The notes under the pieces were generated by a model. The model did no database searches. It was not told the origin of the DNA and worked only from the letters and a program-made list of their open reading frames with translations. From Centroscyllium fabricii (taxonomy: Eukaryota): a stretch of DNA of 64,000 nt. The DNA lies in assembly GCA_051313645.2 (NCBI GenBank), contig JBNRSN020000012.1, positions 167,772,001 to 167,836,000 on the forward strand. The letters run 5' to 3'. How positions within the stretch are numbered: the stretch's first letter is position 1; the number at the start of each line of letters is the position of its first letter. The position numbers and the translations under genes were made by a program. Of this stretch, positions 1,271 to 61,872 are shown in pieces.

Positions 1271-1705
1271 CTGCTCCCAAACCATTGATCCCCAGGTTGA
1301 TTGCAAAAATCATAAGCAATTGTAATATGAGGTCACCACGGTTTCAGACACTGCCCTGGCCGAACTCTGCCTCGTCCCGTGTACCGAGTTGGATCTTCTC
1401 CCTCAGGTTTCCTGGCAGCTGGTACAGCTAGCTTGTGCTTTCCTGCTTGGAGAGTGACGGGCTGCTTATCTAAAAGGGCCATGGCCGATGCAGTATCATG
1501 GAGTTCTGTGTCACCAGACCTTTGAAAGGTGCTTTATCCTGAAACCGTTTTAAAATAAATAATCATTTGAAAGCGACCCCAGTTTAATGCGTAGGTGGAC
1601 AGTTGTTACAAAAGAATCAGACACTCGTTTGTCATGCTGGGTGTGTTGTCCATTTCAACTTGTATGAGAAGCCATCTGTGTAATGTGTTCATTTTCCTTT
1701 TTCAG

Positions 1706-1803
1706 ATACTTGTTTGCACTGCAGATTAAGCGGGACCTGGCAGAGAACAAAATAATGTGCAATGCGAACACGTCTGCACTCATCATCTCTCATCTCTTGC
1801 AAT
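1706..1803 (+). CDS. FARP2: FARP2 coding exon (FERM central lobe): YLFALQIKRDLAENKIMCNANTSALIISHLLQ
   Basis: Polypyrimidine tract and TTCAG acceptor, GTGAGT donor. Translation resembles recalled human FARP2 RYLFALQLKRDLLEERLTCADTTAALLTSHLLQ. Confidence 0.9.
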
Positions 1804-7042: not shown

Positions 7043-7157
7043 CTGAAATTGGGGATTGCGATGAAGCTCTGGATCTGGAGTACCTTAAGAATAGCACACT
7101 CTTGCCAAACCAGAATACGCTGCAGCAAAAGATTATAGAATTCCATTGGAAAATCAT
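7043..7157 (+). CDS. FARP2: FARP2 coding exon: SEIGDCDEALDLEYLKNSTLLPNQNTLQQKIIEFHWKI
   Basis: TTTTTAG acceptor, GTGAGT donor, phase matches the previous exon. Resembles FARP2 SEIGDYDETLDREHLK...KILEFHQKH. Confidence 0.9.
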
Positions 7158-13937: not shown

Positions 13938-14085
13938 AGGCCAGACTCCAGCTGAGTCTGATTTCCAGGTACTGGAGATAGCACGGAAGCTCGAGATGTA
14001 TGGAATTCGTTTCCACCCGGCCTCTGACAGGGAAGGGACAAAAATCAATCTGGCTGTTGCCCACATGGGAGTGCTGGTGTTTCAG
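13938..14085 (+). CDS. FARP2: FARP2 coding exon: [49 protein letters not shown]
   Basis: CCAG acceptor, GTAGAT donor. Nearly identical to the recalled FARP2 FERM M/C junction. Confidence 0.95.
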
Positions 14086-14713: not shown

Positions 14714-14809
14714 GGCAATACAAAAATTAACACCTTCAACTGGGCGAAGATCCGGAAACTTAGCTTCAAGAGGAAAAGATTCCTCATCAAGCTCCACCCA
14801 GAAGTCCAT
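14714..14809 (+). CDS. FARP2: FARP2 coding exon (FERM C-lobe): [32 protein letters not shown]
   Basis: CTAACAG acceptor, GTACGG donor, 96 nt, phase 0/0. KLHPEVH is the FARP2-type sequence. Confidence 0.95.
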
Positions 14810-17185: not shown

Positions 17186-17349
17186 AATTCATACCAGGAT
17201 ACCTTGGAGTTTCTGCTAGCTGATCGTGACCTGTGTAAGATCTTCTGGAAGAACTGTGTCGAGTACCACACCTTTTTCAGACTCCTGGACCAACCCAAAC
17301 CAAAGGCCAAGCCAGTTTTATTCAGCAGGGGCTCCTCCTTCAGATACAG
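17186..17349 (+). CDS. FARP2: FARP2 coding exon: [54 protein letters not shown]
   Basis: TGCAG acceptor, GTAGAT donor. YQDTLEFLL and [18 protein letters not shown] match recalled FARP2 better than FARP1 or FRMD7. Confidence 0.95.
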
Positions 17350-18313
17350 GTAGATGTTAACCATGTTTTAACTGTTTAACATTTGTCAATTTAGAGTATT
17401 TCTGTTTGTTAATTGTAGAAATCACTGAGCCTGGTGGGATATAGCTCTACATACGATTTTAAATGAGCAAGTTGTTGACGAGCCCACTAGTGATACATAA
17501 TACATTCCAAGGATTCCTGTTTATCACACCTAAGGCTAATGCATCTTTCTGTCATGCTTATTTTTAAAAAGTATTTTAAAAGCATTGTCACACTGGTGTT
17601 TTATCATAAAAAATGAACATGCAAGAAGTATGCACTGAACGCACACGTCAGTATGAAGCAGGCATAACCAGAGTCTCACGATTATTTATTTTCACCATGG
17701 CTCCCTATTCTATATATACATATATTGTGACTATAAAGTTAGTTTTTCTAGTGGTTTGAATTCTTTATTCATTATATTACAACATAACCACTGTGATCGC
17801 TGCAAATGGAGGAATTGTTTCTGAACATTTTGCATCTCACTTTGTGCATCAATAGGATAGTAATTTTGTTGAATGAGGAGGGCAAAGGGTTAAAAGTTGC
17901 GGTATCTTTTGTCCACTCATTAAAGTGAACAATTAAACAGAGTTGTGCCCACCAATTATTTTGAAGATCAGATTAAAATGTTTACTGAATTGTGGTAAAC
18001 CACTGTTGTTGTTGTTGTTGTTATTCACTGTCGTTCACTCTTGCCTGTTGTATATAACCTGCCTGGACATGCCTCTGCTGATTCCGCCTCTGGCTCCACC
18101 CTCATGCCCTGGTATAAAGGCGACTGCTTTCCAGTCCCCTGGCATTCAGGACTGGTCAACCAGTAGAGGCATGCTCTCGATCTTTAGTAAATAATAGCCT
18201 GTTAGTTACTTGATCTTTAGTAAATAAAACCCTGTTAGTTACTTACTTAACTCCAGTCTTTTGATCGTGATTGATTGCGCATCAATTTTATTTACTAAAA
18301 GTTTTTTGCTGAA

Positions 18314-19300
18314 ATGAATAAAATCCTAAAACCAGAACGCCTAGCGTTAGATCCTCAAGCGGCGGATGCGGCTAGAACGTTCGCGCACTGGCTAAAGTGC
18401 TTCGAGGCATTACTGGATGCCTCCAAAACTACCGTCGCGTCTGAGACAGACAAGCTACTGGTCCTGCAATCCTGGGTGAATCACCAGGTGTACTTCCTCA
18501 TTGAAGAGGCGGCTACTTACAAAGACACCCTGGACCTCCTAAAGGAGCAGTACGCACGCCCGGTTAATGAGGTCTACGCCAGGCACCTCCTACTGTCCCG
18601 CAAACAGCGGCCTGGGGAACCCACGGAAGATTACCTATGGGCGCTGAGGGTACTCTGCCGGGCCTGTAATTGTAAAGCGGTGTCGGCAAAGGTGTACACG
18701 GAGGACCTCATCTGTGACGCCCTCATCGCAGGCATCCGATCAAATTACACCCGGCAGAGACTGCTGGAGCAGGACGACCTCGATTATATAAAAAATAAAA
18801 TAAAAAAAAAGGCCACAGCCCTCGCACTATCGCTGGATGTAATATGGAATCATACTCACCGAACCACGCGGCCGCCTCATGGATGTCGCGGGCGTCAGCA
18901 TTCTGGGACACGGTAGGACTGCTATCCTGCGCCGCCCCCGCCTCATCCCACCAACAGCCCGACTACGGCAGCGATGTCCCGGGGCCAGAAGTGCTACTTC
19001 TGCGGCCAAGCAAAATACCCCAGGCAACCCTGCGCGGCGAAAGACGCTACGTGCTCCAGCTGTAAGAAGAAGCGGCACTACGCTAGTGTCTGCAAGGCAA
19101 AATCGACCTCCCACCCCAGCAGTGCCGCATGTGGACCGATCGAGCCGCCATCTTGGACGGCCGCGTGGGGAACAAGCCGACCACCATCTTGGACGCCCTC
19201 CACCGCGTGCGGATCATGGGCGACGCTATCTTGGACGCCTTCAACCGCGGATGAACCTGCCTCCCCCACCGCCTCACATGATGACTTCAGCGACTCAACG
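18314..19300 (+). pseudogene. Gypsy element 1 gag (frameshifted)
   Basis: KPERLALDP...HWLKCF N-terminus and a zinc knuckle region CYFCG...CAAKDATCSSCKKKRHYASVC. An A-rich expansion near 18785-18810 is associated with the frame break. Confidence 0.85.
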
Positions 19301-22190
19301 CTCCCTGCACTGGCCCCTCGCCCTGGACCAATCCAGGCCTCACCAGCTCGCCAGGTCCATGATGGACATAAAGGTAAACGGCCGCGCCACGAATTGCCTT
19401 TTTGACTTTGGGAGCACGGAAAGTTTTATTCACCCCAACACGGTGTGGCGTTACACTCTCTCGGTTCTGCCAGCGCAGTTCTGCAAGCGTGCCATCGGAT
19501 TTCTTTGGCCTCCAAGTCCCACACAGCGGATGTCGGGGGCTACTGCGTGGTGACCCTGTCGGTGAGGGGCACTGTTTACAAGGATTTTAAACTTCTGGTT
19601 CTGCCCCACCTCTGTGCTGCCGTCCTACTTGGGTTAGACTTTCAGAGCCATCTTAACAGCGTCAAAATGGCGTACGGTGGGCTCCCCCCCCCCCCCCCTT
19701 CATGTCTGCAGCCAGCAGTTTTTAAATCTCCCACCGTGCACCATTTGCAGCCTCTCGACTCTCAGTCACCCCATCTCCACTGTTTGCTAACCTCACCCCA
19801 GACTGCAAGCCCATCGCCACCAAGAGCAGGCGATACAGTGCCGGGGACAGATATTTTATTAAATCCGAGGTGCAATGGCTCCTGAGGGAAAGGGTTATTG
19901 AGGCTAGCACCAGCCCCTGGAGAGCCCAAGTGGTAGTCGTTAAGACCGGCGAGAAACACCGCCTGGTCATAGACTATAGCCAAACCATAAACCGGTATAC
20001 GCAGCTGGATGCATACCCCCTTCCCCGCATATCTGACATGGTCAACCAGATTGCACAGTACCGGGTATTCTCCACTATCGACTTAAAGTCAGCGTATCAC
20101 CAACTCTCTATCGGCCCTGAGGACCGCCAGTACACTGCCTTTGAGGCAAATGGCCGCCTCTACCACTTCCTTAGGGTTCCTTTCGGCGTCACCAACGGGG
20201 TCTCAGTTTTCCAGCGGGTGATGGACTGAATGGTTGACCAGAATCGGCTGCTAGCTACATTCCCGTACTTGGATAACGTTACTATCTGCGGCCATGACCT
20301 GCAGGACCACGACGCCAACCTTAAGAAATTTCTCCGCACAGCCCAACTCCTAAACCTTACTTACAGCAAGGGGAAATGCATGTTCCGCACCACCCGCTTC
20401 GCTATCCTTGGCTGTGTTGTGCAGAACGGGGTCAACGGTCCCGACCCCGACTGCACGCGTCCCCTTCTGGAACTTCCCCTTCCCCACTGCCTCAAGGCCC
20501 TGAAGAGATGCCTGGACTTCATTTTGTATTACGCCCAGTGGGTCCCTAATTATGCAGACAAAGCCCGTCCACTCATCAAGTCCACCTCTTTTCCTCTGGC
20601 GGCAGAGGCCCGTCTAGCCTTCAGCCGCATCAAGGAAGACCTCGCTAAGGCCACAATGCACGCTGTGGACGAATCCACCCCGTTCCAGGTGGAGAGTGAT
20701 GCGAGCGACTTTGCCCTGGCCGCTACCCTTAACCAGGTGGGGAGACCTGTGGCGGCCTTCTCACGAACCCTCCAGGGCCCCGAAATTAGACACTCCTCTG
20801 TCGAAAAGGAGGCCCAGGCCACTGTGGAAGCTGTGCGGCACTGGAGGCATTACCTGGCCGGTAAACGATTCACCCTGCTCACTGACCAGCGTTCAGTTGC
20901 TTTTATGTTTAATAACAAGCAGTGGGGCAAAATCAAAAATGACAAGATATTGAGGTGGAGAATTGAACTTTCCACCTGCAATTATGATATCTTGTACCGG
21001 CCCAGGAAGCTCAATGAGCCCCCAGATGCTCTAGCCCGCGGAACATGTGCCAACGCCCAGGTGAATCGACTGCAGTCCCTCCACAATGACCTCTACCACC
21101 CGGGGATCACCAGGTTCTTCCATTTTGTCAATGCCCGCAACCTGCCTTACTCCATCGAGGAGGACAGGACCATGACCAGGAACTGCCAAGTCTCTGCCGA
21201 GTGCAAACCGCACTTTTATAGGCCAGACAGGATACACCTGATAAAGGCCACCCGTCCTTTTGAGCGCCTGAGTGTCGATTTCAAAGGGCCCCTCCCCTCC
21301 TCTGACCGCAACGTGAACTTCCTCAATATTATTGATGAGTACTCACGTTTCCCTTTTGCCATCCCCTGCCCGGACATGACCTCTGCCACGGTCATCAAGT
21401 GTCTGCACAATCTCTTCGCCCTGTTAGGGTTCCCCAGCTATATCCATAGTGACCGGGGTTCCTTGTTTGAGTGGCGAGCTGCGTCAGTACCTGCTCGCAA
21501 GAGGAGTCTCCGCGAGCAGGACCACCAGCTACAGCCCCCGGGGAACGGACAGGTAGAGAGGGAGAATTCAACAGTCTGGAAGGCCGCCCTGCTAGCCCTG
21601 AAGTCTAGAGGCCTTCCAATTTCTCGCTGGCAGGAAGTCCTCCCTGATGCGCTCCACTCCATCCGATCACTACTCTGTACTGCCACTAATGCTACTCCTC
21701 ACGAAAAAATGTTTGTCTTCCCTCGGAAGTCCACCTCGGGGACCTCGCTGCCATCATGGCTGACTTCCCCAGGGCCCGTCCTACTCCGGAAGCACGTGAG
21801 TAGCCATAAGACGGACCCCCTAGTCGAAAGGGTCCACCTCCTCCACGCCAACCCCCCATACGCCTACGTTGCATACCCTGACGGGCGGGAGGACTCGGTC
21901 TCCATTAGAGAACTCTCACCCTCGGGAGCCCCTGAGACCACTATTCCCCACCACCCATCACCATTGCCCCCCACCGCTACCCACGATGCACCGGTATCGA
22001 GGCATTTTACTCTAGCCCCTGCAGACGGGACCCGTCGCTGAGCACCCACCAACTCGACGCGGATGATGACGACACGCCGGTGCTCCGGACCGCTCTGGAT
22101 TTGCCAATAGAACCTGCACCACAGCCGGAACCACGACGGTCGCAGCGGCAGACCAGACCTCCCGAAAGACTTACTTATACTAAATTTTAA
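19301..22190 (+). pseudogene. Gypsy element 1 pol (protease-RT-RNase H-integrase), disrupted
   Basis: CLFDFGSTESF protease; SPWRAQVVVV, IDLKSAYHQ and YLDN in RT; ESDASD RNase H; SVDFKGP, IDEYSRFP, SDRG and GNGQVER integrase. In-frame TGA at 20227-20229 plus frameshifts. Confidence 0.92.
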
Positions 22191-26648: not shown

Positions 26649-26717
26649 TGGGAGGACGCAGAAGCAGCTCGTTGACTACATGCGAGAGAGTGTGGTTAAG
26701 ACTACTCCTTATCAGAG
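26649..26717 (+). CDS. FARP2: FARP2 coding exon (FERM-adjacent domain): SGRTQKQLVDYMRESVVKTTPYQR
   Basis: CCACAG acceptor, GTATTT donor, SGRTQKQLVDY motif, phase consistent. Confidence 0.93.
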
Positions 26718-32836: not shown

Positions 32837-32894
32837 GCGGCACAGCAGAGCACGAGTCTCAGCTCGGACTTTGAGCGCAGACGTGCCAAAACAG
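32837..32894 (+). CDS. FARP2: FARP2 coding exon: RHSRARVSARTLSADVPKQ
   Basis: TTCAG acceptor, GTTAGT donor. Resembles FARP2 RRHSKTHTSVRALTADLPKQ. Confidence 0.88.
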
Positions 32895-33659
32895 GTTAGT
32901 CCTGCGGCACTTTAACCTTGGGATTTGTGTGTATCAGTGTTTCGAAAATGGAGTACTTGCCAAATCTGATGTACCTGATAACCTGGATTGTTCCATTTAC
33001 CCCATCCACCCTTCTCATGGAGCTTACCACTCGGATGGTAGGCACTATTGGCAGTAGACTCGTACATAATTGCTGTCTGTGCTGTTCTGTATCAGCAAGG
33101 CAAGTGAATGTCCTAAATGATAAACTGTACCTGATAATCTCCTCCCTGCAGCCTCCCCTTTCCCAGTAATATAATGTGTCCCTTCCATGTGGCATTCCAT
33201 CAGGCTTCCTGGCTTGAATACTGGCAGGATTCGTACAGTTGAGGCTGTGGGGGGTTCAGTGGAAGTCAATCCTGGGATTGAACCCTCTGACCTGCCAGTT
33301 TGGGAGTTGCATTATATTTGGATAAAGCAATGGTAACCTTTGTTTCAATACATCAGTAGCAATAATATTCTGCTCGTCCATTACTTGGCTGTGGATGTCA
33401 TTAGGTTTTCATTAAATTCATAAAATTTCCCCATGCAATTTATTATGACTAGGTAATATATGAGTTGCCTGATTGGGCTGGTTTGCATAGTAATCAAAGT
33501 GCTGAAATGAGAAGCAGAAAGTGGTTTCTAATGTAAGTGGATGGATTTGTTAATTTAAGACCTGTTTAAAAGTGGAGAAATGTTAATGTACTGTCCATAA
33601 TCTGATTGCAGTATACAAATGTGGCTGTTGTTTCCATTTTGTTTTCTTCTCCCCACTAG

Positions 33660-33903
33660 AGTTTATCATTCACTGAAGGTGTAGAGGTCCCGGGCTCTCC
33701 TCCTCCAGCAGCTGTGTCCTTTCAGTCCATCCAGTCTGCATATAGGACTGTTGCTGACAGTCGACCCATCCACCCCGATAACAGCAGCGTACTCCTCGTC
33801 AGCAAGCACTCTGCCCAGAGACCCCCATCAGAAGCGAAGAAGAGTCCAGCGTTGGAAGAGGCGTGGAAGACTTCTGATCAGCCCTCTCCGATCTCCTTGC
33901 AAG
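33660..33903 (+). CDS. FARP2: FARP2 linker exon, spliced form: SLSFTEGVEVPGSPPPAAVSFQ...PSPISLQ(G)
   Basis: Strong acceptor (ttttcttctccccactag). The start resembles FARP2 SISFPEGLRTPASPSS. The proposed donor AAG|GTTCTG is phase 1, matching the next exon at 61694, but its exact position is inferred. Confidence 0.75.
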
Positions 33904-34883
33904 GTTCTGTTGCTGAAGCTGCAGGGAGCTGCAGTCACTCCTCCTCGGGTTGTGATGAGCGTAGTGGTTTGACTAGAGAAGACAGTGTTAGTGACGGGCG
34001 GCTCACTCAGAGAAATGACAATGATGAGGATGACTATACCACAGGTATATTTATTACTGAGAACGAGTACAATGTTAGCCAGTTTCAGGGAAGGGCAATG
34101 CCAATTTTCACATTGACAAACGCTCAGTTGCAGCTCACAGAAGAGTTCATTGACGACGACCCTGCTGAGATTTCCTTTTTTGCTGGTGGGTCGGAGGCAT
34201 TTTCACCATGTTACCATGGGCTAGGGAATGGTACAAAGGGCTCTACTATTTATAGTCAACCAGAGAGTTCACCAGTAATAAACTCCAGCTTGGGGAAACG
34301 CAGCCCAAGTAAATATGTCAATGATAATATGGAGCTGGGTTCAGAGGATGACCTTGAATTTGAGGGTGGGAGTGATCTCAATGGCAATGGCCAACCAATC
34401 AACACAACTGATCTCTTTGAGGTGAAGGCACAAGCCAATCGGCTGCACGGGCGCTATAGCAAATCAGAGACAAGTTCGCTACTGAACAACCAGTCAGAAA
34501 GCAGCTCACTGACAAACCTCGGGTTAAACGGCCTATCTGAAACGGCGTTGTTCAGGGCTGCCAACTCGGGCAGTCAATCTGAAGCCAGTTCCATGGTGAA
34601 TTTTCCCACGTATTCCGTGCGCTCCGAGTCCAGCTCTGCATTTCAGTTCGGTGACATGATTGATCAGCTCGAGCAGCTGAGTTACCCCCCTACCACCACA
34701 GAAGATTCAACCAGTAGTGGGTCTGGGTCTTGGGATTCAGACAGTGGGGTCCCCCTCGATGGCAATTTCTTTTACAGTAACCCATTTGCACAAGTCACAG
34801 CCAATAATTTCACATTCAGTTTCAAGAGTGAGGTTAATGGCTGTGTACACGGAGAGCGGGAGGAAAGGAGCAGTCTGAATTAA
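33660..34883 (+). CDS. FARP2: Extended (read-through) alternative terminal exon of FARP2, 407 codons, acidic and Ser-rich
   Basis: The frame from the 33660 acceptor is continuous with ORF 33714..34883 up to TAA. The sequence is non-repetitive and protein-like, with no TE motifs. Confidence 0.7.
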   Translation, partial: SLSFTEGVEVPGSPPPAAVSFQSIQSAYRTVADSRPIHPDNSSVLLVSKHSAQRPPSEAKKSPALEEAWKTSDQPSPISLQGSVAEAAGSCSHSSSGCDERSGLTREDSVSDGRLTQRNDNDEDDYTTGIFITENEYNVSQFQGRAMPIFTLTNAQLQLTEEFIDDDPAEISFFAGGSEAFSPCYHGLGNGTKGSTIYSQPESSPVINSSLGKRSPSKYVNDNMELGSEDDLEFEGGSDLNGNGQPINTTDLFEVKAQANRLHGRYSKSETSSLLNNQSESSSLTNLGLNGLSETALFRAANSGSQSEASSMVNFPTYSVRSESSSAFQFGDMIDQLEQLSYPPTTTEDSTSSGSGSWDSDSGVPLDGNFFYSNPFAQVTANNFTFSFKSEVNGCVHGEREERSSLN

Positions 34884-35789
34884 ACCGTGCCTTTTCACTG
34901 GTGCACGTTGGTGCATTGTAGGCCTGGAAATTATTTTTGTACATTAGTGATTCAGAACCAGACACTAATTTCACTTTCGTGACCTCTTTACTGTTGCTTT
35001 GATTCCTTGGTTTGATGACCATGTGAAGTAAAGAAAATATCATGCATTACATATACTGACAATAGAAATGCTCCATCAAAAAGTGGGTATTTAAATATAA
35101 GCATTCCCAGAGTACTTTACCTTCTCACCTTGTTTGATTGTGGTGAGTTTTGGGCTGTTGGCCTTTGACCAAAACCTATCTCTAAGTATTCTGTTAATGT
35201 AAGGTTTTGGCAACCAGCCCAGTGGTTTGTCCAATGTTGTAGTAAAGTTGGGGCCTGTCACTATGGACTGATTCATAATCAATCTAGTCCTGTGTATATA
35301 TAAATATATTTTTTTACAGTTGCCAACCAACATTGGTACTACTTGCACAGCTTTCTTCATTAAAGCACAAGACACTTGCAGCCACAAAAGTGTTGTACAG
35401 TTAAATAGTCTCTGTCTGGAGGTGCTGTGATGGTGGAGCTTATGGGGCACAAAGAACTTTACAGACAGCATTGATGGATTGTTGGATAGAATTCTGTGGA
35501 ATCAAAGTACAAAGCTAAAATTATAATCTAAAAAACACTTTGAAGAATATTACCTTTTCTCTGTCTTCATTGTGTAATAGCGCAACTGACGGGGTCTTAT
35601 GGTCATGGTGATTAGCTGGTCCAATCTATGTCACTTTTGTGGGGCATTCATACAAGTCTAATGTCACTCATGGGTTGTCTTCATTATCAGAAACACTAAA
35701 TTTAGAAAACCTCCTTTAATGGGAATTTGAAGCAGCTCAAAGTAAATTTAAACATTTTACAATATGTGGAGGTGTTGGCTCTTTCCCGT

Positions 35790-36650
35790 GACCATCTCGG
35801 CTGTCAAAACTGCCTGTCTAACATCAGGTCTTGGGTAAGGCAAAACTTCCTTCAACTGACCACTGGGAAGAGGGAAGCGATCGTTTTTGCCCCCTACCCA
35901 TCTAACCCAAAACAAGCTCTGCTCTTACTACTAGCTTAGTTTCCCTTCGTGACCAGGTGAAACCTTGGCGTCCTATTCAACACCGAGCTGAGCTGGAAAC
36001 CCCACATTCTATCCATCACAAAGACCGTTTACTTCCACCTCCACAATGTGGCACATCTCCACCTCACCGCTGCTGCCAGAAGCCTTATTCATGGTTTTTT
36101 TCACCTCTAGACTCTTATTTTTCCAATGTCCTTTCTGCCTGCATGCCATCACCTACCCTCCATAAACTCCAACTTGTTCAAAATTAATCTACCCATATCA
36201 CGTGCTGCAGTGTTGACCCTGCCAGCCATTCACCCCTGCTCCCCAACAAATTTAATTTAAAATACTCTTCCACAGCCTCTCCCCACCCGAGCTCTGAACT
36301 CCATCCAACTTAATGTCCCTTCCTAAGTTCTCTGGTCCTCTGACTCTGGTCTTTTATGCATCCATTCTCCTCCCTTCATCCCACCATTGGTGGCGGATCT
36401 TTCAGCTACCTCTTCTCTGCTCTCTACAATTCTGTCCCTAAGTCCCTCTGCCTCTACTTCCCTCCACATTTAAAAACCTTCTCAAAACTTATCTTTTTGA
36501 TTTAAGCCTTCGGTCACCTCCTTAAGTCTCCCATCAAGGTGCAGTGTGCATTCCTTTCTCCCTTTAATCTATATTTTCCCCATCTCCTGTGAAGCTCTTC
36601 AGGATATTTTCTACATTAAAGGTACTTGTATAAATACAAGTTCTTGTTTC
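35790..36650 (+). mobile_element. Old L2-clade LINE 3' fragment
   Basis: CLSNIRSWVRQNFLQL and LHKLQLVQN motifs, L2-type tail ending ataaatacaagtt. Confidence 0.7.
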
Positions 36651-37499
36651 TTCTACTGTTGTCATAATTGATAACCAAAAATAATATTCCTAAGAAGGGT
36701 GATGCCCTGCCAAAAACTGCTGTACTAGACTCTGCAATGGGGCATTGAAGCTAGAGATGCACCACATTTGTGGGCAGCTCCATCAATAATTCTAACCTGG
36801 TTGTAAACACAACTATTTTGATGAAAATTGAAATTTTTCAGGAGGCAATGGTGATAAAAGATTAGAAATTACTTGGATTGTTTACAGTGATGGCAGCTCA
36901 GCTCAGCTCTTCAGCATCACCTGCTCCATAAGTGCCAGGAGCTAAAGGTGAAGAGTTGGCGATTTGCACCATGACTTAAACCTTTTTCTCAATTTTTGTT
37001 CCGGGTTACAATCCCAACCAATGAATTTCTTGAGGGCCACTCTGAAATACTGCAATGTGAAGTGATAGAACTCTAGAAGCCTGCAGCATCGAAGGAAGCC
37101 ATTCAGCCCATTGTGGTTCTGTGCCTACGATTCCTCCACACAATGGGCTCCTGATTTCAATCATGGCACTTCTGGTAGTTGCCAAGTGGAGGGTAGACAA
37201 AGCGGGACATGGAAAGCTGTAAAGACAATAGGTTTTTAAGAAGGAAGTTCCATTTGATCTGCGAAACCTACCACTACCCTGCCACCTTTTTCTGGGGAGC
37301 AAGGTAAAGAGAGGGAACAATATTGAAATCCAGCTCTATTTCCATCCTATAGCTATGCAAGCCCCGAGGCACATGGAGCAGGTGTAGGGAAGATGGGCTG
37401 CAAACGATCCCTGGCCCATATGAATTCCACTGACTTAAGCCACATGTTTCCTGATCAGAATTCTTCTTGTACCATAAGAACAGTCAAAGATGCGAAAGG

Positions 37500-37890
37500 C
37501 TGTTTAACCCATTGGACTCTCTCTCCGGTGCTCTAACATCCAATGGTATTGAATGGTCAGAATGTCTTTAGTCTCTGCTACCTTACCTGTTGGATTATTC
37601 CAAACAGTTGGCATTCTTTGGGTAAAGTAGTTCTCTCCAATATCTTTAAAATTTCCCTTTCCCTCATTTAAATTGGCATTCCTGATTTTCTTTGAAATTG
37701 TTTTGAGATTACCATTTAATATTGCACACACTTCCATGAGGTCTGTTGTCAGCCACCTCTCTAAACTGTAACGTTTAGGCTTCTGTAATCTATTTACTTG
37801 GCTCATTCCCTCTACATTTGGGATTAATCCTGTTGCTTTTCTCTGCGCCCTCTTCACTGTTTGCGTGTACTTTTAATAGCTTGGTGACTA
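37500..37890 (-). mobile_element. Highly decayed CR1 3' fragment
   Basis: QRKATGLIP, YSLERW and YFTQRMPTVWN motifs. Confidence 0.65.
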
Positions 37891-40800
37891 AAACAGTACT
37901 GCAGACGTTGCCTTGTTAGGTTTTATTTTGGAAAATTCCTTGGGAGGCACTTTAACCTTAAATTTACAAGAAACCGGTGATTCCGCAGTATTATGCAACT
38001 TTAAAGAATATATTGATTGCCTTTATATGGTAGTCAACCATTTTTCAATGACCAAAGCCAGAAAGCAAATAACACTAAACCTGGGCAAAGTACTTGTGTT
38101 AGGTTATCTCCTGACTAATGATCACTACCAGTACCAGTGAAACACCAACTAGTAACCTTAACTGGGAGCCCATGCCAGTGCTCCGAATGCTAATGGGCAG
38201 GAGGAGACCAACCACTGGTGGTTTGCTCAGCAGCTAGTACCAAAATCCAGCTCTGGCATGGACTTTGAGTTGATGTGTGGAATGCTGGTTTTAGTGATTG
38301 GATGTGATTTGTTGGTTTGGTCTGTTGATATTTATGTGGAGGGCAGGGGTTAAGCATTTTGATAGAACAGTGAAGGCTGATGCTTGTGCAGTAATACATC
38401 GGTTAGAGCGAAGGACCAGTGGTGAACTTTGGAATTGGTGCCTATCCGAACAATTCAGTTGATTCAAAAATATATCTACCGGCTCAAAACATCCCTACTA
38501 AGATATATCCTAGAAGTGTGCCATAAACTAATATCTAGTCAAGAAATGGACCATAAGGGAGAGAGTTTCTCATTTATGGAGTTGAGGTATGGATCAGCCA
38601 CGATCTAACTGGCCGAACAGGCTTGAGGGGCTGAGTGGCATGCTGCTATTCCTATGTTTTCTATTTGTTTTCCATTTGTTATCTTTTTTTAATCTTGCAG
38701 CTAAATGTGTTAATTTTAATTGTATCTGGGTGTAAGAAATTCCACTGAATTCATTCCAGATCAAGCAAGTTGCTGGATAATGGTGATATAAGCTGGAGTA
38801 AATTGGAAGAGTGCTGAAAATTAATACCCACATGTCCAACCTTTTTGCACTGCTGTGCAACTGTCATGCTTGTATCCTAGGACTTTTTTAATGGGTGAAT
38901 CTTCTATAAAGGAGGTTAATGAGTATTGTGATTGCAGTGGGTATTGACTGGAATGCTGCCTGGTGATGGGCAGTGAGTGATTGCAGCACTACCCCCTTTT
39001 CCCCTTCTCTCCTGCTCCTCATCTCTGAACAAGTCCCTCCCTTCCCAAAGTGCCAAATCCTGTGCCTTCACTTTGCTCAAATTCAGAACTCTGAAAGCTC
39101 CTCAAGAGCGTGCTTTATTGGCTGCGGTTTGCAATGTAGCTGTGTTGATTTTTTAAATCGAGGAACACGCACAGCAGGGGGGCGTGTTGGTTCAAAGTGC
39201 CTTGTACCTAGATAGTTGGTAGGACCTGTACAGTGTATGTGCAGGGTGTGATGGTGAGTTGTGTAATAAATGCTCCTTATTTGTTGTCTGTATTTGTGAT
39301 TTTAACTAAATTTCTATATGCAAATGCTAATCCAAGGCCCTAAATGCCAAATACTAATTGGGCATATTGAAATAATGTATGTAATGGTTTCATTTTTTTT
39401 TTTTTTTTAAAGTGCCCTAAATTTAGATGGTATCTCATTCTCATTATTGTCATTGGGGCGGGTAAAGGAGAAGGTAATTCTATTATTGATCTTGTTTTTA
39501 TCTTATTGCTTTAATTATGACTAATATTTGATGCAGGGCTTGAATGCAACTTTACTCCCCTACCTTACAGGTGTCAGTACTTTGCTAGTACCTGTCATTC
39601 ACCAGCTTGAATTCTAGTGACTTTGGATATCATTCCATTGACTAAAACAGACAAAAGTCTTAAGTGAAAGATATAGATTGTAAGGAGCTTTGGGAATAGG
39701 TATTACAGTATCTGAAGATCACTGTACAGAAATGATGGCTGAGTGTCAGTATCCAGCGTGGGGTTCAGGAGGCTGAATTTGTAATGGTGACTGGCAGAAC
39801 GGAAAGCTCCTTGTGCTCAGCTGGTGGTGTAATGTTAAATTCAAGCCCTGTGTTCAACAGCTGTCCATGTTCACTCCACACTTGGCGTTTGATCTGTATA
39901 AAAACCACTGGCTGATGAAGTTATTGTATGAACTGTTGCTAATCGGGAGCCATGGGCTTGGAGGTACTAAGTGAGTCCGATCTTAAATAAAAAAAGTTTT
40001 TTTTTACTGACATTTGCTTTTTTAATTAAAAAACATCCTGTTCATTTTAATTTGTACAATTTCAAGTTCGTCATAACTGAAAGTGTGTGGAAGTTCTGTA
40101 CAGTGGAGAGAGAGCAGGATAGCTGATAGTGCCTTGCCGGTGGGGGGGGAGGGTAGATCAGGGAGAATGGGGCTAACTCACTGCCTCGTGCAAGGACAAG
40201 GATCACTCCATACTTGTCTGGAGGGAGGGAGAAATCAAAGAGAGGGAAGATTATGGAACAGCAGGAACGGCTCCATGCACTGCCCGAGGGAGGAAGGACG
40301 AGGAATGGTGGGGTTGACTCCATGGCTGTTTTGGAAAAGGAAGGTGGTGATAACCTGCACAATTATTGGTCTCCTGCAATATTCCCTGTTTAATAATGGA
40401 CACAAGGGCCCTTGACCCAGGCAGCAGAGGATTTAACCCCATGGGCACATGAATGGAAACCCTTGTTACAGTGTGATCTTTTTGTCAATGTGGTCACCCA
40501 GCATCTAGCTATGGAGTCGTTATCAGAGTATTGCTCTGTGTGTTCCACGCCATCACTGGTATTGGCCAAGGGGCTCATGTTGTCACTGGTATTTTAGTTG
40601 GTACTATTTTTTGGGACCTGGTATTTGAGGCAATGTGACAGGGACCTTTGGCAAATGACCAAATGCTTTCAGTCTAGAAGCTGATCTAGGCAAGTGCCGT
40701 TAAGCATAAGTGCAAGAGTATTTGGAGCTGAGGAGAGCAGATGAAGATGTAGAACGATGTGGTCAGTAATGGTAACTCTAGGTAACCGATTGATACCATC

Positions 40801-55073: not shown

Positions 55074-58000
55074 TAGCAGAGCCACTAGGGGGAGACATCC
55101 CTATCTCCCCAAAGAATCAGAATCCACATTCTGGAGTTGGTCCCGCCCCTGTTGTCCCATTGGTCGGTTGGAGCAACAGTTTTGGTCCCGCGGGCTGTCC
55201 ATCAAAAGCCCCATCATGCCTTGCGTTTTCACGCCTTTTGCAGTTAGTTGTTTTCTGGATCGAACTCAATAACGACCTGTTTACGTTTGCTCTGCATTCC
55301 TCGACGTTTATATCGAATTCGACGAGTAGGCAACTGCCGTTCCCTACAATTGGTGACCCCTAATGTCAGCCCCAGAAGGTGCTGACCTGAACGTGAGCCC
55401 CGAGGTCGGGCACTGCGAACGGCCGTCGACGATCAGCCTTCCCCCCCCCCCCTCCCCACCCCTTTTGGGACAACCAGGCAGCCGCTTGGCTTTTGCAGAC
55501 AGAGGCCCAGTTCCAGCTCAAGCGCCTCGATAGCAGTGAGGACCGATACCTCCTCATCGTTTCAGCTCTGCCAAGCCGACATCGTGGATCTGCTGCGGGA
55601 CCCGCCTCTCACTGACAGGTACGCTGCCGTTAAGAGCCGACTGCTCCAGGCTCACGACTTACATGAAGACGTCAGAGCCCGGCAACTCCTCGATCTTTCG
55701 GAGTTAGGCGACTCCACGCCTACGCGCCTGATGAATCGCATGCTCGCCCTTCTCGGGGACCACCAAGACTGTCCTTTGTTTCGGGTGCTATTTATCAGTC
55801 TGCTCCCACAACCTGTACAATCGGCTTGAACGAACGTTAGAGGTGGGACCTACACCGAACTGGCCACCGCCGCGGACCGCGTTTGCCTGTGCGCATCCAC
55901 TAATTGTGCATCCACGAGGCTCGTAGCCCCTACGCCGCGGGTTATGCCTCCACCTCAGCACGGACTCTGCTATTACCATGCACGCTCCGGCCCACAGGCT
56001 CATCACTGCCGACCACCTAGTTCATTCAACGACAAAGAGGTTACGCCCAAACCTCACGTTTCGACCCCGCACCGCCGCCAGGGCCCAGCCGCAGCAAACG
56101 CCATTGGCACAGCAGCAAAGCTGCTGTATGTGATGGACTCGCTGTCCGGACGGAAGTTCCTCTGTGACACCGGGGCTCAATGCAGCATTTTGCCAGCTAC
56201 GCAGCTCGATCGACAAGCAGGCCGCAGTGAATGGCGCAGCCATAGCCACGTTCGGGAAACGGCGGGCAGAGATTCGCGTGATTGGCCAGTGGTTCACCTG
56301 GGATTTCGTTACAGCCAACGTGGAACATCCATTGCTAGGCGTGGATTTCCTATGTGCCCATGGTCTGCTCGTGGACGTCCAGGGCAGACGCGTCCACTTT
56401 TACCTCCCTGCCCTGCCAGTGGAGCAACAGCCACCCCCTTGTGGGCTCCTGCTTGCCGCCTCTTCGCGACAAATACGCGCGCCTACTGGCCGAGTTCCCG
56501 TCCATTACACAGCCGACCTTTTCCGAGGTGGCGGCCAAACACGGCGTCCGACATCATATCGCCACGACTGGCCCACCAGTCTTCGCTCGTGCCAGGCATC
56601 TCGACCCCACGGAGATGGCGGTCGCAAAGCAGGAATTTTCAAACATGGAAAAGTTGGGGATCATTCGCCCCTCGATCAGCCCGTGGTCATCCCCGCTCCA
56701 CATCGTTCCCAAGCCCGGTGGCGGCTGGCGACCGTGCGGCGACTACAAGCGCCTTAATGACGCCACCACGCCGGACAGATATCCAGTGCCACACATTCTC
56801 AAAAGTCGACCTCATCCGAGGATACCACCAGGTCCTGGTCCACCCGGACGACGTCCAAAAGACGGCAGTGATTACACCGTTCGTACTTTTCAAATTCCTA
56901 CGTATGCCCTTCGGCTTTAAGAATGCGCACAGGTTTTCCAACGGTTGATGGACTCTGTCCTTCGGGACTTGGACTTTTTATTTGTATATCTCGATGACAT
57001 ATTGGTAGCGAGTGCGGATGAATCTCAACATGTTGTGCATTTGCGTTCCCTTTTTCAGAGATTGGCCCATCATGGCCTAATTGTAAACCCGGTTAAATGT
57101 CAATTCGGCCTTGCTTCATGCTATTCCCTTACCCTCTAAGGTTAAAGCGGTCACTGATTTTCCACAGCCTCGCTAAGTGGGCCCTAGCTGAAGCCACCCT
57201 TTTGACCCACCGTATACCGGGCGCCCCACTGTCGCTCACGACGGACGCCTCGGATCATGCCATTGGCACCATTCAGCAACAATGGGTTGATGGCGCCTGG
57301 CAGCCCCTCGCATTTTTTAGCCGCCAGCTACGGTATAGTGAGCTCTCGTATAGCACGTTCGACCGGGAACTGCTAGCTCTTTCTCTTGCGGTGCGGCACT
57401 TTCGGTTTCTCTTGGAGGGCCGTCCGTTCACTGCTTACGCGGACCATAAGCCCCTCATTTTCGCCTTGTCCAAGGCCACTGAGCCCTGGTCAGGTCGCCA
57501 ACAGCGCCACCAGAATTTCATTTCTGAATTTACCACAGACATTCGTCACGTGTCCGGTAAGGACAATGTCGTTGCCGACTGCCTCTCCCGTCCTTCCATC
57601 ATCGCAGTCCACGTTGGTGTTGATTATGCAGAGATGGCGCGTGCCCAGCAGGCGGACGCCGAGCTGCAGGCTTTTCGTTCTGCCTCCACCAGACTGATCC
57701 TAGCGGATGTTCACTTTCAAGCAGCCGGCACGTCCCTCTTGTGTGACGTTTCCGTGCCTAACCCTAGGCCCTTAGTGCCACCTCCTGGCGCAAGTACGTC
57801 TTTGGTTTGGTCCATGGGCTCACCCACCCGAGCACGCGAGCTTCTCAGAAGCTCATGCCCGCCAAATTTGTCTGGCCAGGCCTACATAAAGATGTGCAGA
57901 ACTGGACGAACATCTGCCAGGACTGCCAACACGCTAAGGTCCATCTGCACACTAAGCACTAAGGCGCCCCTGCAGAATTTTCTGGTGCCCGAACGACGGT

Positions 58001-59329
58001 TCGATCATGTTCACGTTGACTTGGTTGGACCCCTGCCCCCATCACAGGGTTTCACTCATCTCCTTACCATCGTGGACCGCACTACCCGGTGGCCGGAGGT
58101 GGTACCCCTTACTTTCACCACTTCGGCTGATGTGGCGCGCGCCTTCATTTTTCATGGGTGGCCCGATTTGGGGTTCCGTCGGACACGACCTCTGACGGGC
58201 CCACGGTTTACCTCCCAGCTGTGGAGCGCAGTCGCCACTGGCCTGGGGACGCAGCTGCACCGCACGACTGCTTATCATCCGCAAGCAAACGGTATTTGCG
58301 AGCGGTTCCACCGCGCCCTCAAGGCCTCACTTCGTGCCAGCCTGGTCAACTCCAACTGGCTGGACAGGCTCACTTGGGTCCTGCTGGGGTTGCGCTCCGC
58401 CCCCAAAGATGACCTCGGCATGTCTTCCGCCGAGCTCATGTTTAGGCAACCCTTGCGCATTCCAGGAGAGTTCCTCCCCTCTGTTACCGAGAGTTGGTCA
58501 GCCGGCGAGCAGCTCGCTCGGCACAACGATGCGGCACATCGTTTCCTGCCTGTGCCCACCTCTCGGCACGGGGCCCGCTCGTCCCACGTGCCCACCGAGC
58601 TCCGCCGGGGCAATTTGTCTTTGTCCGTCATGACACCCACAGAGCCCCTTTACAGGCGCCTTATACAGGCCCTTTCAGGGTGCTAGAGGCTGGTGACAAG
58701 TCTTTTCTCCTCGCGGTCGGGGGCCGACAGGATCGCGTTTCCATTGACCAGCTCAAGCCGGCCCATTTGGACCCTGTTCCGCCTGAACAGGGTCCCAGGG
58801 TCATATGTCAGGAGCGTTTCTCTGTTCCAATCGTGCCCCCAGCGGGTCCCGCGTTAAGTAGACCCTCGTGTCCTGCTCTGCCTCTGGATTGCTCTCCGGT
58901 CTCGCCCACTACTCCTGCGGAACAGCCGCCCTCCACTCCTGTTCACGGCTCGCCGCTAGCGCCCCCTGCACCGGCGGGTTATCGCACTTGTAGCGGCCGC
59001 CTCGTCAAGCCTCCTCAGAGATTGACTTATCATGTCCATGCGGATTCTGGGCGGGCGTATGTAGCAGAGCCACTAGGGGGAGACATCCCTATCTCCCCAA
59101 AGAATCAGAATCCACATTCTGGAGTTGGTCCCACCCCTGTTGTCCCATTGGTTGGTTGGATCAACAGTTCTGGTCCCTGATTGGTCCCGCGGGCTGTCCA
59201 TCAAAAGCCCCATCATGCCTTGCTTTTTCGCGCCTTTTGCAGTTAGTTGTTTTCTGGATCGAACTCAATAAAGACCTGTTTACGTTTGCTCTGCATTCCT
59301 CGACGTTTATATCAAATTCGACGTGTACA
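55074..59329 (+). mobile_element. Gypsy LTR retrotransposon, CsRn1/Kabuki-like clade (element 2), 4-bp TSD GCAC
   Basis: LTRs 55074-55348 and 59060-59329. GCAC at 55070-55073 and 59330-59333. PBS TGGTGACCCC (tRNA-Trp type) at 55351-55360. Gag CYYH..GP.AHHC.PP knuckle, FLCDTGA protease, WRPCGDY/YLDD RT, TDASD RNase H and HVDLVGP...YHPQANG integrase, with frameshifts and deletions. Confidence 0.92.
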
Positions 59330-61693: not shown

Positions 61694-61872
61694 GTCATTT
61701 AGTCGACAGTTTGCAACTGTCTCCTCTTGCCACGAGGAATCCTTTCAATGTGTTGTTTCCTGGATCCCAGATGACTAATCTGAATTTGCCCTCTCAGTCA
61801 CCACTGCAGAGCCCGATTCTCAGCGATGTAGGGAGCACGAGGGTGGACGATGAGGAAGAAGACCGACGAAAG
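61694..61872 (+). CDS. FARP2: FARP2 coding exon just upstream of the DH domain: HLVDSLQLSPLATRNPF...QSPLQSPILSDVGSTRVDDEEEDRRK
   Basis: TTTCAG acceptor, AAG|GTGTGG donor. SPLQSPILSD...EEDRRK resembles FARP2 SPLLSPVLSDAGG...EEPRHK. Confidence 0.85.

Follow-up and report, generated by a model that had tools for sequence, protein, structure and literature searches.

FARP2 locus and layout of the composite exon

The window (i.e., the whole analyzed stretch of 64,000 nucleotides from Centroscyllium fabricii, contig JBNRSN020000012.1, positions 167,772,001 to 167,836,000 of the forward strand) lies in the gene for FARP2, the closest named proteins in a homologue search being those of cartilaginous fish. 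The encoded FERM-FA part is most FARP2-like and, as in FARP2 orthologues, exons for the DH, PH and PH domains follow downstream, all of them on the same contig beyond the window's downstream end. Upstream of position 33660, seven FERM/FA exons were located in the window by tblastn of the protein of a close relative (P0001). The first exons of the gene lie upstream of the window, and the length of the short form discussed below (~800 aa) is taken from relatives. The following features were assigned (X1, X2 and X6 denote RNA runs of related species):

1698..1803, + strand, FARP2 FERM (F2) coding exon (tblastn of P0001, donor read; start approximate)
7045..7157, + strand, FERM coding exon (tblastn, donor read; start approximate)
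13938..14085, + strand, FERM coding exon (tblastn and splice sites)
14714..14809, + strand, FERM (F3) coding exon (tblastn and splice sites)
17186..17349, + strand, exon with the end of FERM F3 and the start of FA (tblastn)
26649..26717, + strand, FA exon (tblastn)
32837..32894, + strand, small post-FA exon, spliced to 33660 (tblastn; loose ends of X2 and X6 contigs at 33658)
33660..33903, + strand, composite exon, part shared by both isoforms, 81 1/3 codons (ORF, RNA contigs, splice sites)
33901..33909, + strand, weak internal 5' splice site AAG/GTTCTG in phase 1, the switch point (X1/X2 junction; unitig end at 33905)
33904..34883, + strand, read-through tail, 326 codons to TAA (ORF, homologues, RNA contigs)
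34128..34202, + strand, conserved block A (LQLTEEFIDDDPAEISFFAGGSEAF), where the alignment with FARP1 is best (EEFIDDDP in 71 of 75 tails; hhalign)
34335..34376, + strand, acidic stretch predicted in the FERM F3 peptide groove, a lead only (complex model; pattern in 29 of 75 tails)
34413..34511, + strand, conserved block B with SE[ATS]SS repeats (tail alignment, column conservation)
34578..34787, + strand, conserved block C, SEASS..VNFP..QLEQLSYPP..SWDSD..FFYSNPF (conservation 0.83-0.87 over most of the block)
34884..37500, + strand, short-form 3' UTR, at least to 37500 (X1, X2 and X6 contigs reach 37500)
39265..39270, + strand, candidate AATAAA with GU/U-rich sequence behind it (sequence only; other candidates at 39986 and 41155)
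61694..61872, + strand, next canonical long-form exon, splicing to the DH start (tblastn; X1/X2 junction)

The composite exon is entered at the acceptor TAG/AGT (33660) and left, in the long form, at the donor AAG/GTTCTG (33903/33904) towards the acceptor CAG/GTC at 61694. The intron in between spans 27,790 nt and is in phase 1 on both sides, in agreement with the fit across 27.8 kb claimed in an earlier note that had been made from the sequence alone. The weakness of the donor, also claimed there, is borne out by the nine-position donor consensus (5 of 9 positions matched vs 6-8 for six other donors scored). If the donor is ignored, frame 1 from 33660 stays open for 407 codons up to the TAA at 34881-34883, the last 326 of which form the tail and include the peptides quoted in the note. 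With stops as frequent as in this intron, 326 open codons in a row from a given start have a probability of ~3e-7; the note's argument from improbability thus stands, except for its description of the DNA as AT-rich, since the GC content of the tail is 48 %. Five phase-1 GT sites within the tail score 6-7 of 9, with no contig break at any of them.

Two LTR-retrotransposon-like elements with gag/RT/integrase-like ORFs in pieces reside in FARP2 introns (18299-22041 and 55386-59180), and LINE-like fragments are numerous in the window. About 73.6 kb past the window's end (137591-137653 counted from window base 1), a second short match to the PH-linker exon (QRPNAITHVCWYRNQSLSLAD) is found between canonical FARP2 exons, possibly representing a duplicated, mutually exclusive exon.

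Expression and conservation of the read-through tail

The RNA evidence consists of contigs of related species from four runs (X1, X2, X6 and X11) of four studies, presumed by guess to be RNA; such contigs carry no information on 3' ends, strand or level, and their depths were not used for ranking the isoforms. Cover is zero at 33200-33631 and begins at the 33660 acceptor, the loose ends of the X2 and X6 contigs at 33658 corresponding to the upstream exon 32837..32894. The tail is covered past its stop codon in all four runs, with the flanking introns devoid of cover, and a single X6 contig of 4,737 nt leads from the upstream exons through the tail into the UTR (to 37111), demonstrating the presence of read-through RNA that extends beyond the donor and is spliced upstream in a related species. 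The X1 and X2 unitigs stop at 33905 and restart at 33876, the pattern expected of a branch at which both continuations start with GT. In these two of the four runs, the junction from 33903 to 61694 was found (26 loose bases corresponding to window positions 33876-33901), i.e., the internal 5' splice site is used in one of the RNA forms of these related species. As to the far exon, the X6 contig begins at 61692 and X11 covers part of the exon only. The checks proposed in the earlier note, coverage across 33904-34883 and junction reads, thus both turned out in favour of its choice between splicing and read-through, as far as contigs of related species are concerned.

The ATTAAA at 35359-35364, nominated in the same note as poly(A) signal, is crossed by three of the four runs (X1, X2 and X6), the contigs of which continue to 37500; the 3' end is therefore located further downstream, and this hexamer was rejected as the main 3' end. 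A 3' end near 38650, suggested by the extents of the X1 and X2 contigs, was likewise set aside on account of a repeat-like stretch at this place (a 14-mer is shared with only 2 other places). Over 2.6 kb, the 3' UTR (34884-37500) of related species shows a similarity of at least 85 %. Contigs coding for the short form cluster near 5.0 kb in primates and near 4.9 kb in bovids, hinting at a defined 3' end. Relative to this genome, X1, X2 and X6 have a 6-nt in-frame insertion at 61797 in the exon 61694-61872.

Homologues of the tail range from chimaera to mouse (142 at E<=1e-3); among the matches listed, identities amount to 78 % for chimaera, 58 % for coelacanth, ~53 % for birds, 50 % for mouse and ~40 % for teleosts. 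The DH domain is absent from 77 of the best 120 of these 142 homologues, the other 43 of 120 combining tail and DH. In a 52-row alignment, mean column conservation falls from 0.79 in FERM-FA to 0.43 in the exon part common to both isoforms and rises again to 0.57 in the tail, blocks of which reach about 0.8-0.87, on a par with the FERM domain. In the contig rows shown, frame-breaking indels occur in 34884..37500 and none in the tail ORF. Fourteen of the 19 tail substitutions listed, a partial list holding only the best-supported part of the contig differences, are synonymous, while 23 % of the sites are (p=3e-6, crude omega 0.10). Judged from these sequence comparisons, the tail is under purifying selection, as the earlier note would have it. 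Thus, the locus harbours an ORF that is conserved across jawed vertebrates, and both RNA forms are present in related species.

The tail is acidic (net -30), contains 17 % Ser and is predicted to be disordered, with a pLDDT <50 almost throughout (AlphaFold2, close relative P0001). Pfam provided no match in the FARP2 or FARP1 tail and one sub-threshold DUF in FRMD7, the PDB 0 matches for the FARP2 tail; matches in the ESM Atlas, all below 0.9, were disregarded. Motifs which we take to resemble FFAT, NPF/EH-binding and cadherin/APC-like Ser repeats are discernible, NPF being present in 48 of 75 tails.

When FERM-FA and the tail were modelled as a complex, the score was 0.62 vs 0.22 for the best control, which is above the mark applied. 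Among microbial pairs, 51 of 78 solved ones attain this mark vs 2 of 108 mismatched ones; among eukaryotic pairs, the figures are 39 of 65 vs 2 of 126. Agreement between the model runs amounts to 23 % of contacts or more, at a partner pLDDT of 31-32, and P0001 residues 617-630 are placed in the strand/helix groove of F3. Of the 75 tails, 29 display the pattern of this strand (those of sharks, coelacanth, reptiles, birds and rodents), and it is absent from frogs and teleosts; the single-chain model (AlphaFold2, P0001) leaves the tail unplaced. Solved structures exist for 4.1/ERM FERM relatives as well as for FERM-peptide complexes; the complex model may recall the latter, and the benchmark of the tool is without disordered partners. 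Folding of the acidic tail strand back into the F3 groove, by which partner binding would be gated, is therefore regarded as a weak lead from modelling.

The earlier note had regarded the isoform as hidden. However, the short form of FARP2 is on record for mouse (D3Z4C0, 795 aa, on 81 contigs) and macaque (XP_073866883, isoform X7, 796 aa, FERM-FA plus tail), and partial entries of 482 aa exist for human (KAI2527866, with the whole tail) and orangutan. In addition, the tail stop forms the C-terminal end of many Logan proteins, the lengths of which are 769-803 aa. It is not described in the FARP2 titles and abstracts searched, subscription journals being mostly outside this search. Li 2021 (PMC8248162) does not mention Farp2 in its text or in 12 of its 19 supplements. 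Short FARP2 thus is a real, conserved and database-annotated isoform of a known kind. New within the searches made are the common ancestry of the three tails treated below and the likely status of FRMD7 as a fixed read-through form.

Homologous tails of FARP1 and FRMD7

The equivalent exon of FARP1 (L042:6629-7933, G000:C1) is entered in phase 0 and contains a 434-codon ORF with a weak phase-1 donor (5 of 9) at L042:6899/6900; the next canonical exon follows ~85 kb on. For the FARP1 tail, 105 homologues were obtained, human included. A genome search with part of the FARP2 tail retrieved only itself, a blank that means little because the FARP1 tail is homologous and was missed nevertheless. Genome searches with PF08736 and PF20929 located neither the FARP paralogues nor kinases.

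The third locus represents FRMD7 (46 of 47 matches FRMD7-type) and is separate from that of FARP2. Here (L053), the FA exon is followed by a small exon and this in turn, in phase 0, by a long last exon, i.e., FERM-FA combined with one long domain-less last exon at an equivalent intron position, and no GEF/PH match was found in the 160 kb behind it. The last exon (L053:2246-3229, G000:C1488) and the FARP1 tail have SSGTESSDSDSE...FG...R..FS..SLQ in common, as well as PYI.D/S upstream. The end of block C of the FARP2 tail aligns with the SSGTESSDSDSE motif of FARP1/FRMD7.

Tail profiles were built from DH-less tails past a coverage cut (75 FARP2, 67 FARP1 and 47 FRMD7 rows). The FARP1 profile detects the FRMD7 exon with 48.3 bits and the FARP2 tail with 47.6 bits. 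Of 1,000 shuffles per test, 989 and 998, respectively, obtained a score, and none came up to these values (maxima 16.3 and 8.0). With the FARP2 profile, 32.9 bits were obtained for FARP1 and -0.4 bits for FRMD7, and there was no direct match between FARP2 and FRMD7 tails at >=15 bits in either direction (0 of 47 and 0 of 75). Likewise, hhalign yielded 98.4 % for FARP1-FRMD7 (250 columns), 95.9 % for FARP1-FARP2 (60 columns, mainly one 60-column block) and 0.1 % for FARP2-FRMD7. With cartilaginous-fish rows taken out of the profile, scores above the 99th percentile of the local shuffles are still obtained for 47 of 47 FRMD7 and 68 of 75 FARP2 tails. FARP1 possesses the same donor together with a tail homologous to that of FARP2, and the last exon of FRMD7 is homologous to the FARP1 tail. 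By profile comparison, the link between FARP2 tail and FRMD7 is real but transitive, since the FARP1 profile finds both, whereas the FARP2 tail misses FRMD7. The evolutionary connection with FRMD7 put forward in the earlier note holds in this indirect form, but not as a direct one.

In the FERM tree (28 selected rows, unrooted, no outgroup), the three groups are fully supported; close relatives of the present sequence fall with FARP2 at 100/100, and its FERM-FA does not group with FRMD7. Three near-identical kinase exons, presumably of the STK24/25/26 type, were located, one 36 kb behind FRMD7, one ~330 kb from the FERM exon of FARP1 and one on the contig of FARP2. Those at the FARP1 and FRMD7 loci are situated downstream on the opposite strand; the STK25-type exon on the FARP2 side (G000:C224:162088258-162088416, +) is located 5.7 Mb upstream on the same strand, a placement likely due to local rearrangement. 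This synteny is in keeping with a whole segment having been duplicated.

Among 1.84 billion representatives, 67 were matched by a mixed tail profile of 11 rows, 8 of them already-known proteins; each of the 59 new ones is assignable to FARP1, FARP2 or FRMD7, and their best matches are from jawed vertebrates. No tail from invertebrates or jawless fish was recognised among the 67, and disordered tails diverge fast. Since the donor recurs in FARP1 along with a homologous tail, the profile of which finds FRMD7 as well as FARP2, the switch likely predates the three paralogues, FRMD7 having been fixed in the read-through mode. In this scenario, the switch would be older than the FARP1/FARP2/FRMD7 split and the GEF exons would have been lost later in FRMD7.

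Proposed function of the short form and comparison with known systems

The composite exon probably directs the formation of two proteins, splicing yielding full FARP2 and read-through yielding FERM-FA plus tail, a product of ~800 aa likely to serve as GEF-less membrane scaffold. A weak donor in front of a very long intron would allow some transcripts to be cleaved within the intron, rendering the exon terminal. Use of the donor would lead 27.8 kb onward to FERM-FA-DH-PH-PH FARP2, and skipping it would leave a transcript coding for FERM-FA and the 326-residue tail. The short protein may then reach the same membrane partners through FERM-FA, with the conserved Ser/acidic blocks of the tail acting as putative phosphorylation-dependent docking motifs.

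A positive scaffold is favoured over pure competition on account of the FERM-FA partners, receptor clustering in the worm, and the CASK and neurite data for FRMD7. The FERM-FA of FARP2 is bound by aPKC (PMC6503954). CASK is a binding partner of FRMD7, the tail of which promotes neurite growth when isolated; the authors suggest that the FERM domain keeps this tail inactive (PMC3633374). Worm FRM-3A, and also FERM-FA alone, rescue GABA-A receptor clustering (PMC7260190); the FRM-3 isoforms are not distinguished in the available part of PMC9632837. Binding of CASK/LIN-2 and clustering of receptors are known for the worm protein and FRMD7 only; by analogy, they might apply to short FARP2 as well. 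A FARP2 cDNA that presumably encodes the full-length form restores the dendrite response of the Farp2 knockout and also repairs its junction defect (PMC6503954; bioRxiv 2020.01.15.908434), and the short form therefore seems unneeded for these two functions.

It is unlikely that the short form acts mainly as a dominant-negative which fills FERM-FA sites (plexin, aPKC) and lowers Rac/Cdc42 signalling, the tail being of minor importance. The whole aPKC-binding FERM-FA is indeed kept (PMC6503954) and N-terminal fragments of FRMD7 behave in this manner (PMC3633374). However, a simple stop would do for this purpose, yet blocks of the tail are as conserved as FERM, and worm FRM-3A works positively (PMC7260190). 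Retention of the tail as insert of a tail-plus-GEF isoform of ~1,350 aa, formed via a distal donor and with the stop form as by-product, appears quite improbable: the 43 of the best 120 FARP2 matches with both tail and DH, about ten bird and turtle models joining after FFSNPFAQAT (e.g., P0012, P0013, P0015, P0022 and P0049) and mouse Farp1 NP_001412704 (1,278 aa, part of the tail plus GEF) would agree with it, but this genome has no GT at the join (~window 34795), the X1, X2 and X6 contigs span tail and stop unbroken, the many Logan proteins terminate at the tail stop, and in FRMD7 the tail is terminal. The bird and turtle models, in which a near-complete tail is joined to the GEF half, suggest a third isoform of ~1,350 aa.

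That the read-through RNA merely represents unspliced precursor or noise with an untranslated ORF is hardly credible, given the lack of cover in neighbouring introns, a frame kept from chimaera to human with an excess of synonymous change, and the translation of the homologous Farp1 tail (PMC8248162, available part). A weak donor and a long intron would admittedly favour lingering precursor, and no FARP2 tail peptides were found in the literature searched.

Beyond the favoured reading of a switch between GEF and scaffold, a bolder reading, somewhat less likely than not, is that the FARP family inherited this switch from its ancestor, possibly even from that of worms and vertebrates, and that FRMD7 is a duplicate locked in the read-through mode by loss of the GEF exons. 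FARP1 and FARP2 might accordingly make overlooked FRMD7-type scaffolds, the tails of which gate FERM and which could stand in for FRMD7 beyond the circuit for eye movement; 5' Farp2 knockouts, read as loss of the GEF, would have removed them as well.

In the FARP2 literature read, FARP2 is handled as a single GEF, and the present data add a second product, which lacks the GEF part and is conserved throughout the jawed vertebrates. Knockouts at the 5' end (e.g., promoter to exon 2 in the available part of bioRxiv 2020.01.15.908434) and FERM-directed reagents would affect two proteins. Homology of the FARP2 tail, the FARP1 tail and the FRMD7 last exon contradicts the statement in the accessible part of PMC3163398 that the FRMD7 C-terminus has no homologue. 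The conserved motifs represent mutation targets in the nystagmus gene FRMD7, the tail function of which is called unknown in PMC3633374 (part available) and in exon 12 of which patients carry truncations (PMC7958879, part available). Furthermore, a testable case is provided of a splice isoform becoming a separate gene after duplication.

Composite terminal exons based on intronic polyadenylation are known, e.g., from secreted vs membrane IgM. As there, a 5' splice site would compete at the FARP2 locus with read-through and intronic 3'-end formation; unlike the IgM type, read-through adds 326 conserved residues in FARP2, and the poly(A) sites are candidates only. Orthologous FERM-FA plus tail is represented by D3Z4C0 (mouse tail 50 % identical), XP_073866883 and KAI2527866, which are database entries only. 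In the paralogue, the same architecture is displayed by the 800-aa "intron-retained" mouse Farp1 (PMC8248162) and by human A0A1B0GV68. For the former, Li 2021 reported nine tail peptides from 132 brain samples, falling within the tail aligned here; the available part treats this form as intron retention in one gene, with FARP2 and FRMD7 unmentioned in the main text. FRMD7 resembles short FARP2 in FERM-FA, small exon and long last exon, the latter homologous to the FARP1 tail, but differs in being a separate gene without GEF exons found in 160 kb and with a tail lacking a direct match. The same layout as here was described for frm-3a/frm-3b of C. elegans (Zhou et al. 2020, PMC7260190, available part), a likeness resting on layout rather than tail sequence; the parallel may be convergent, and one origin with the worm arrangement is plausible.
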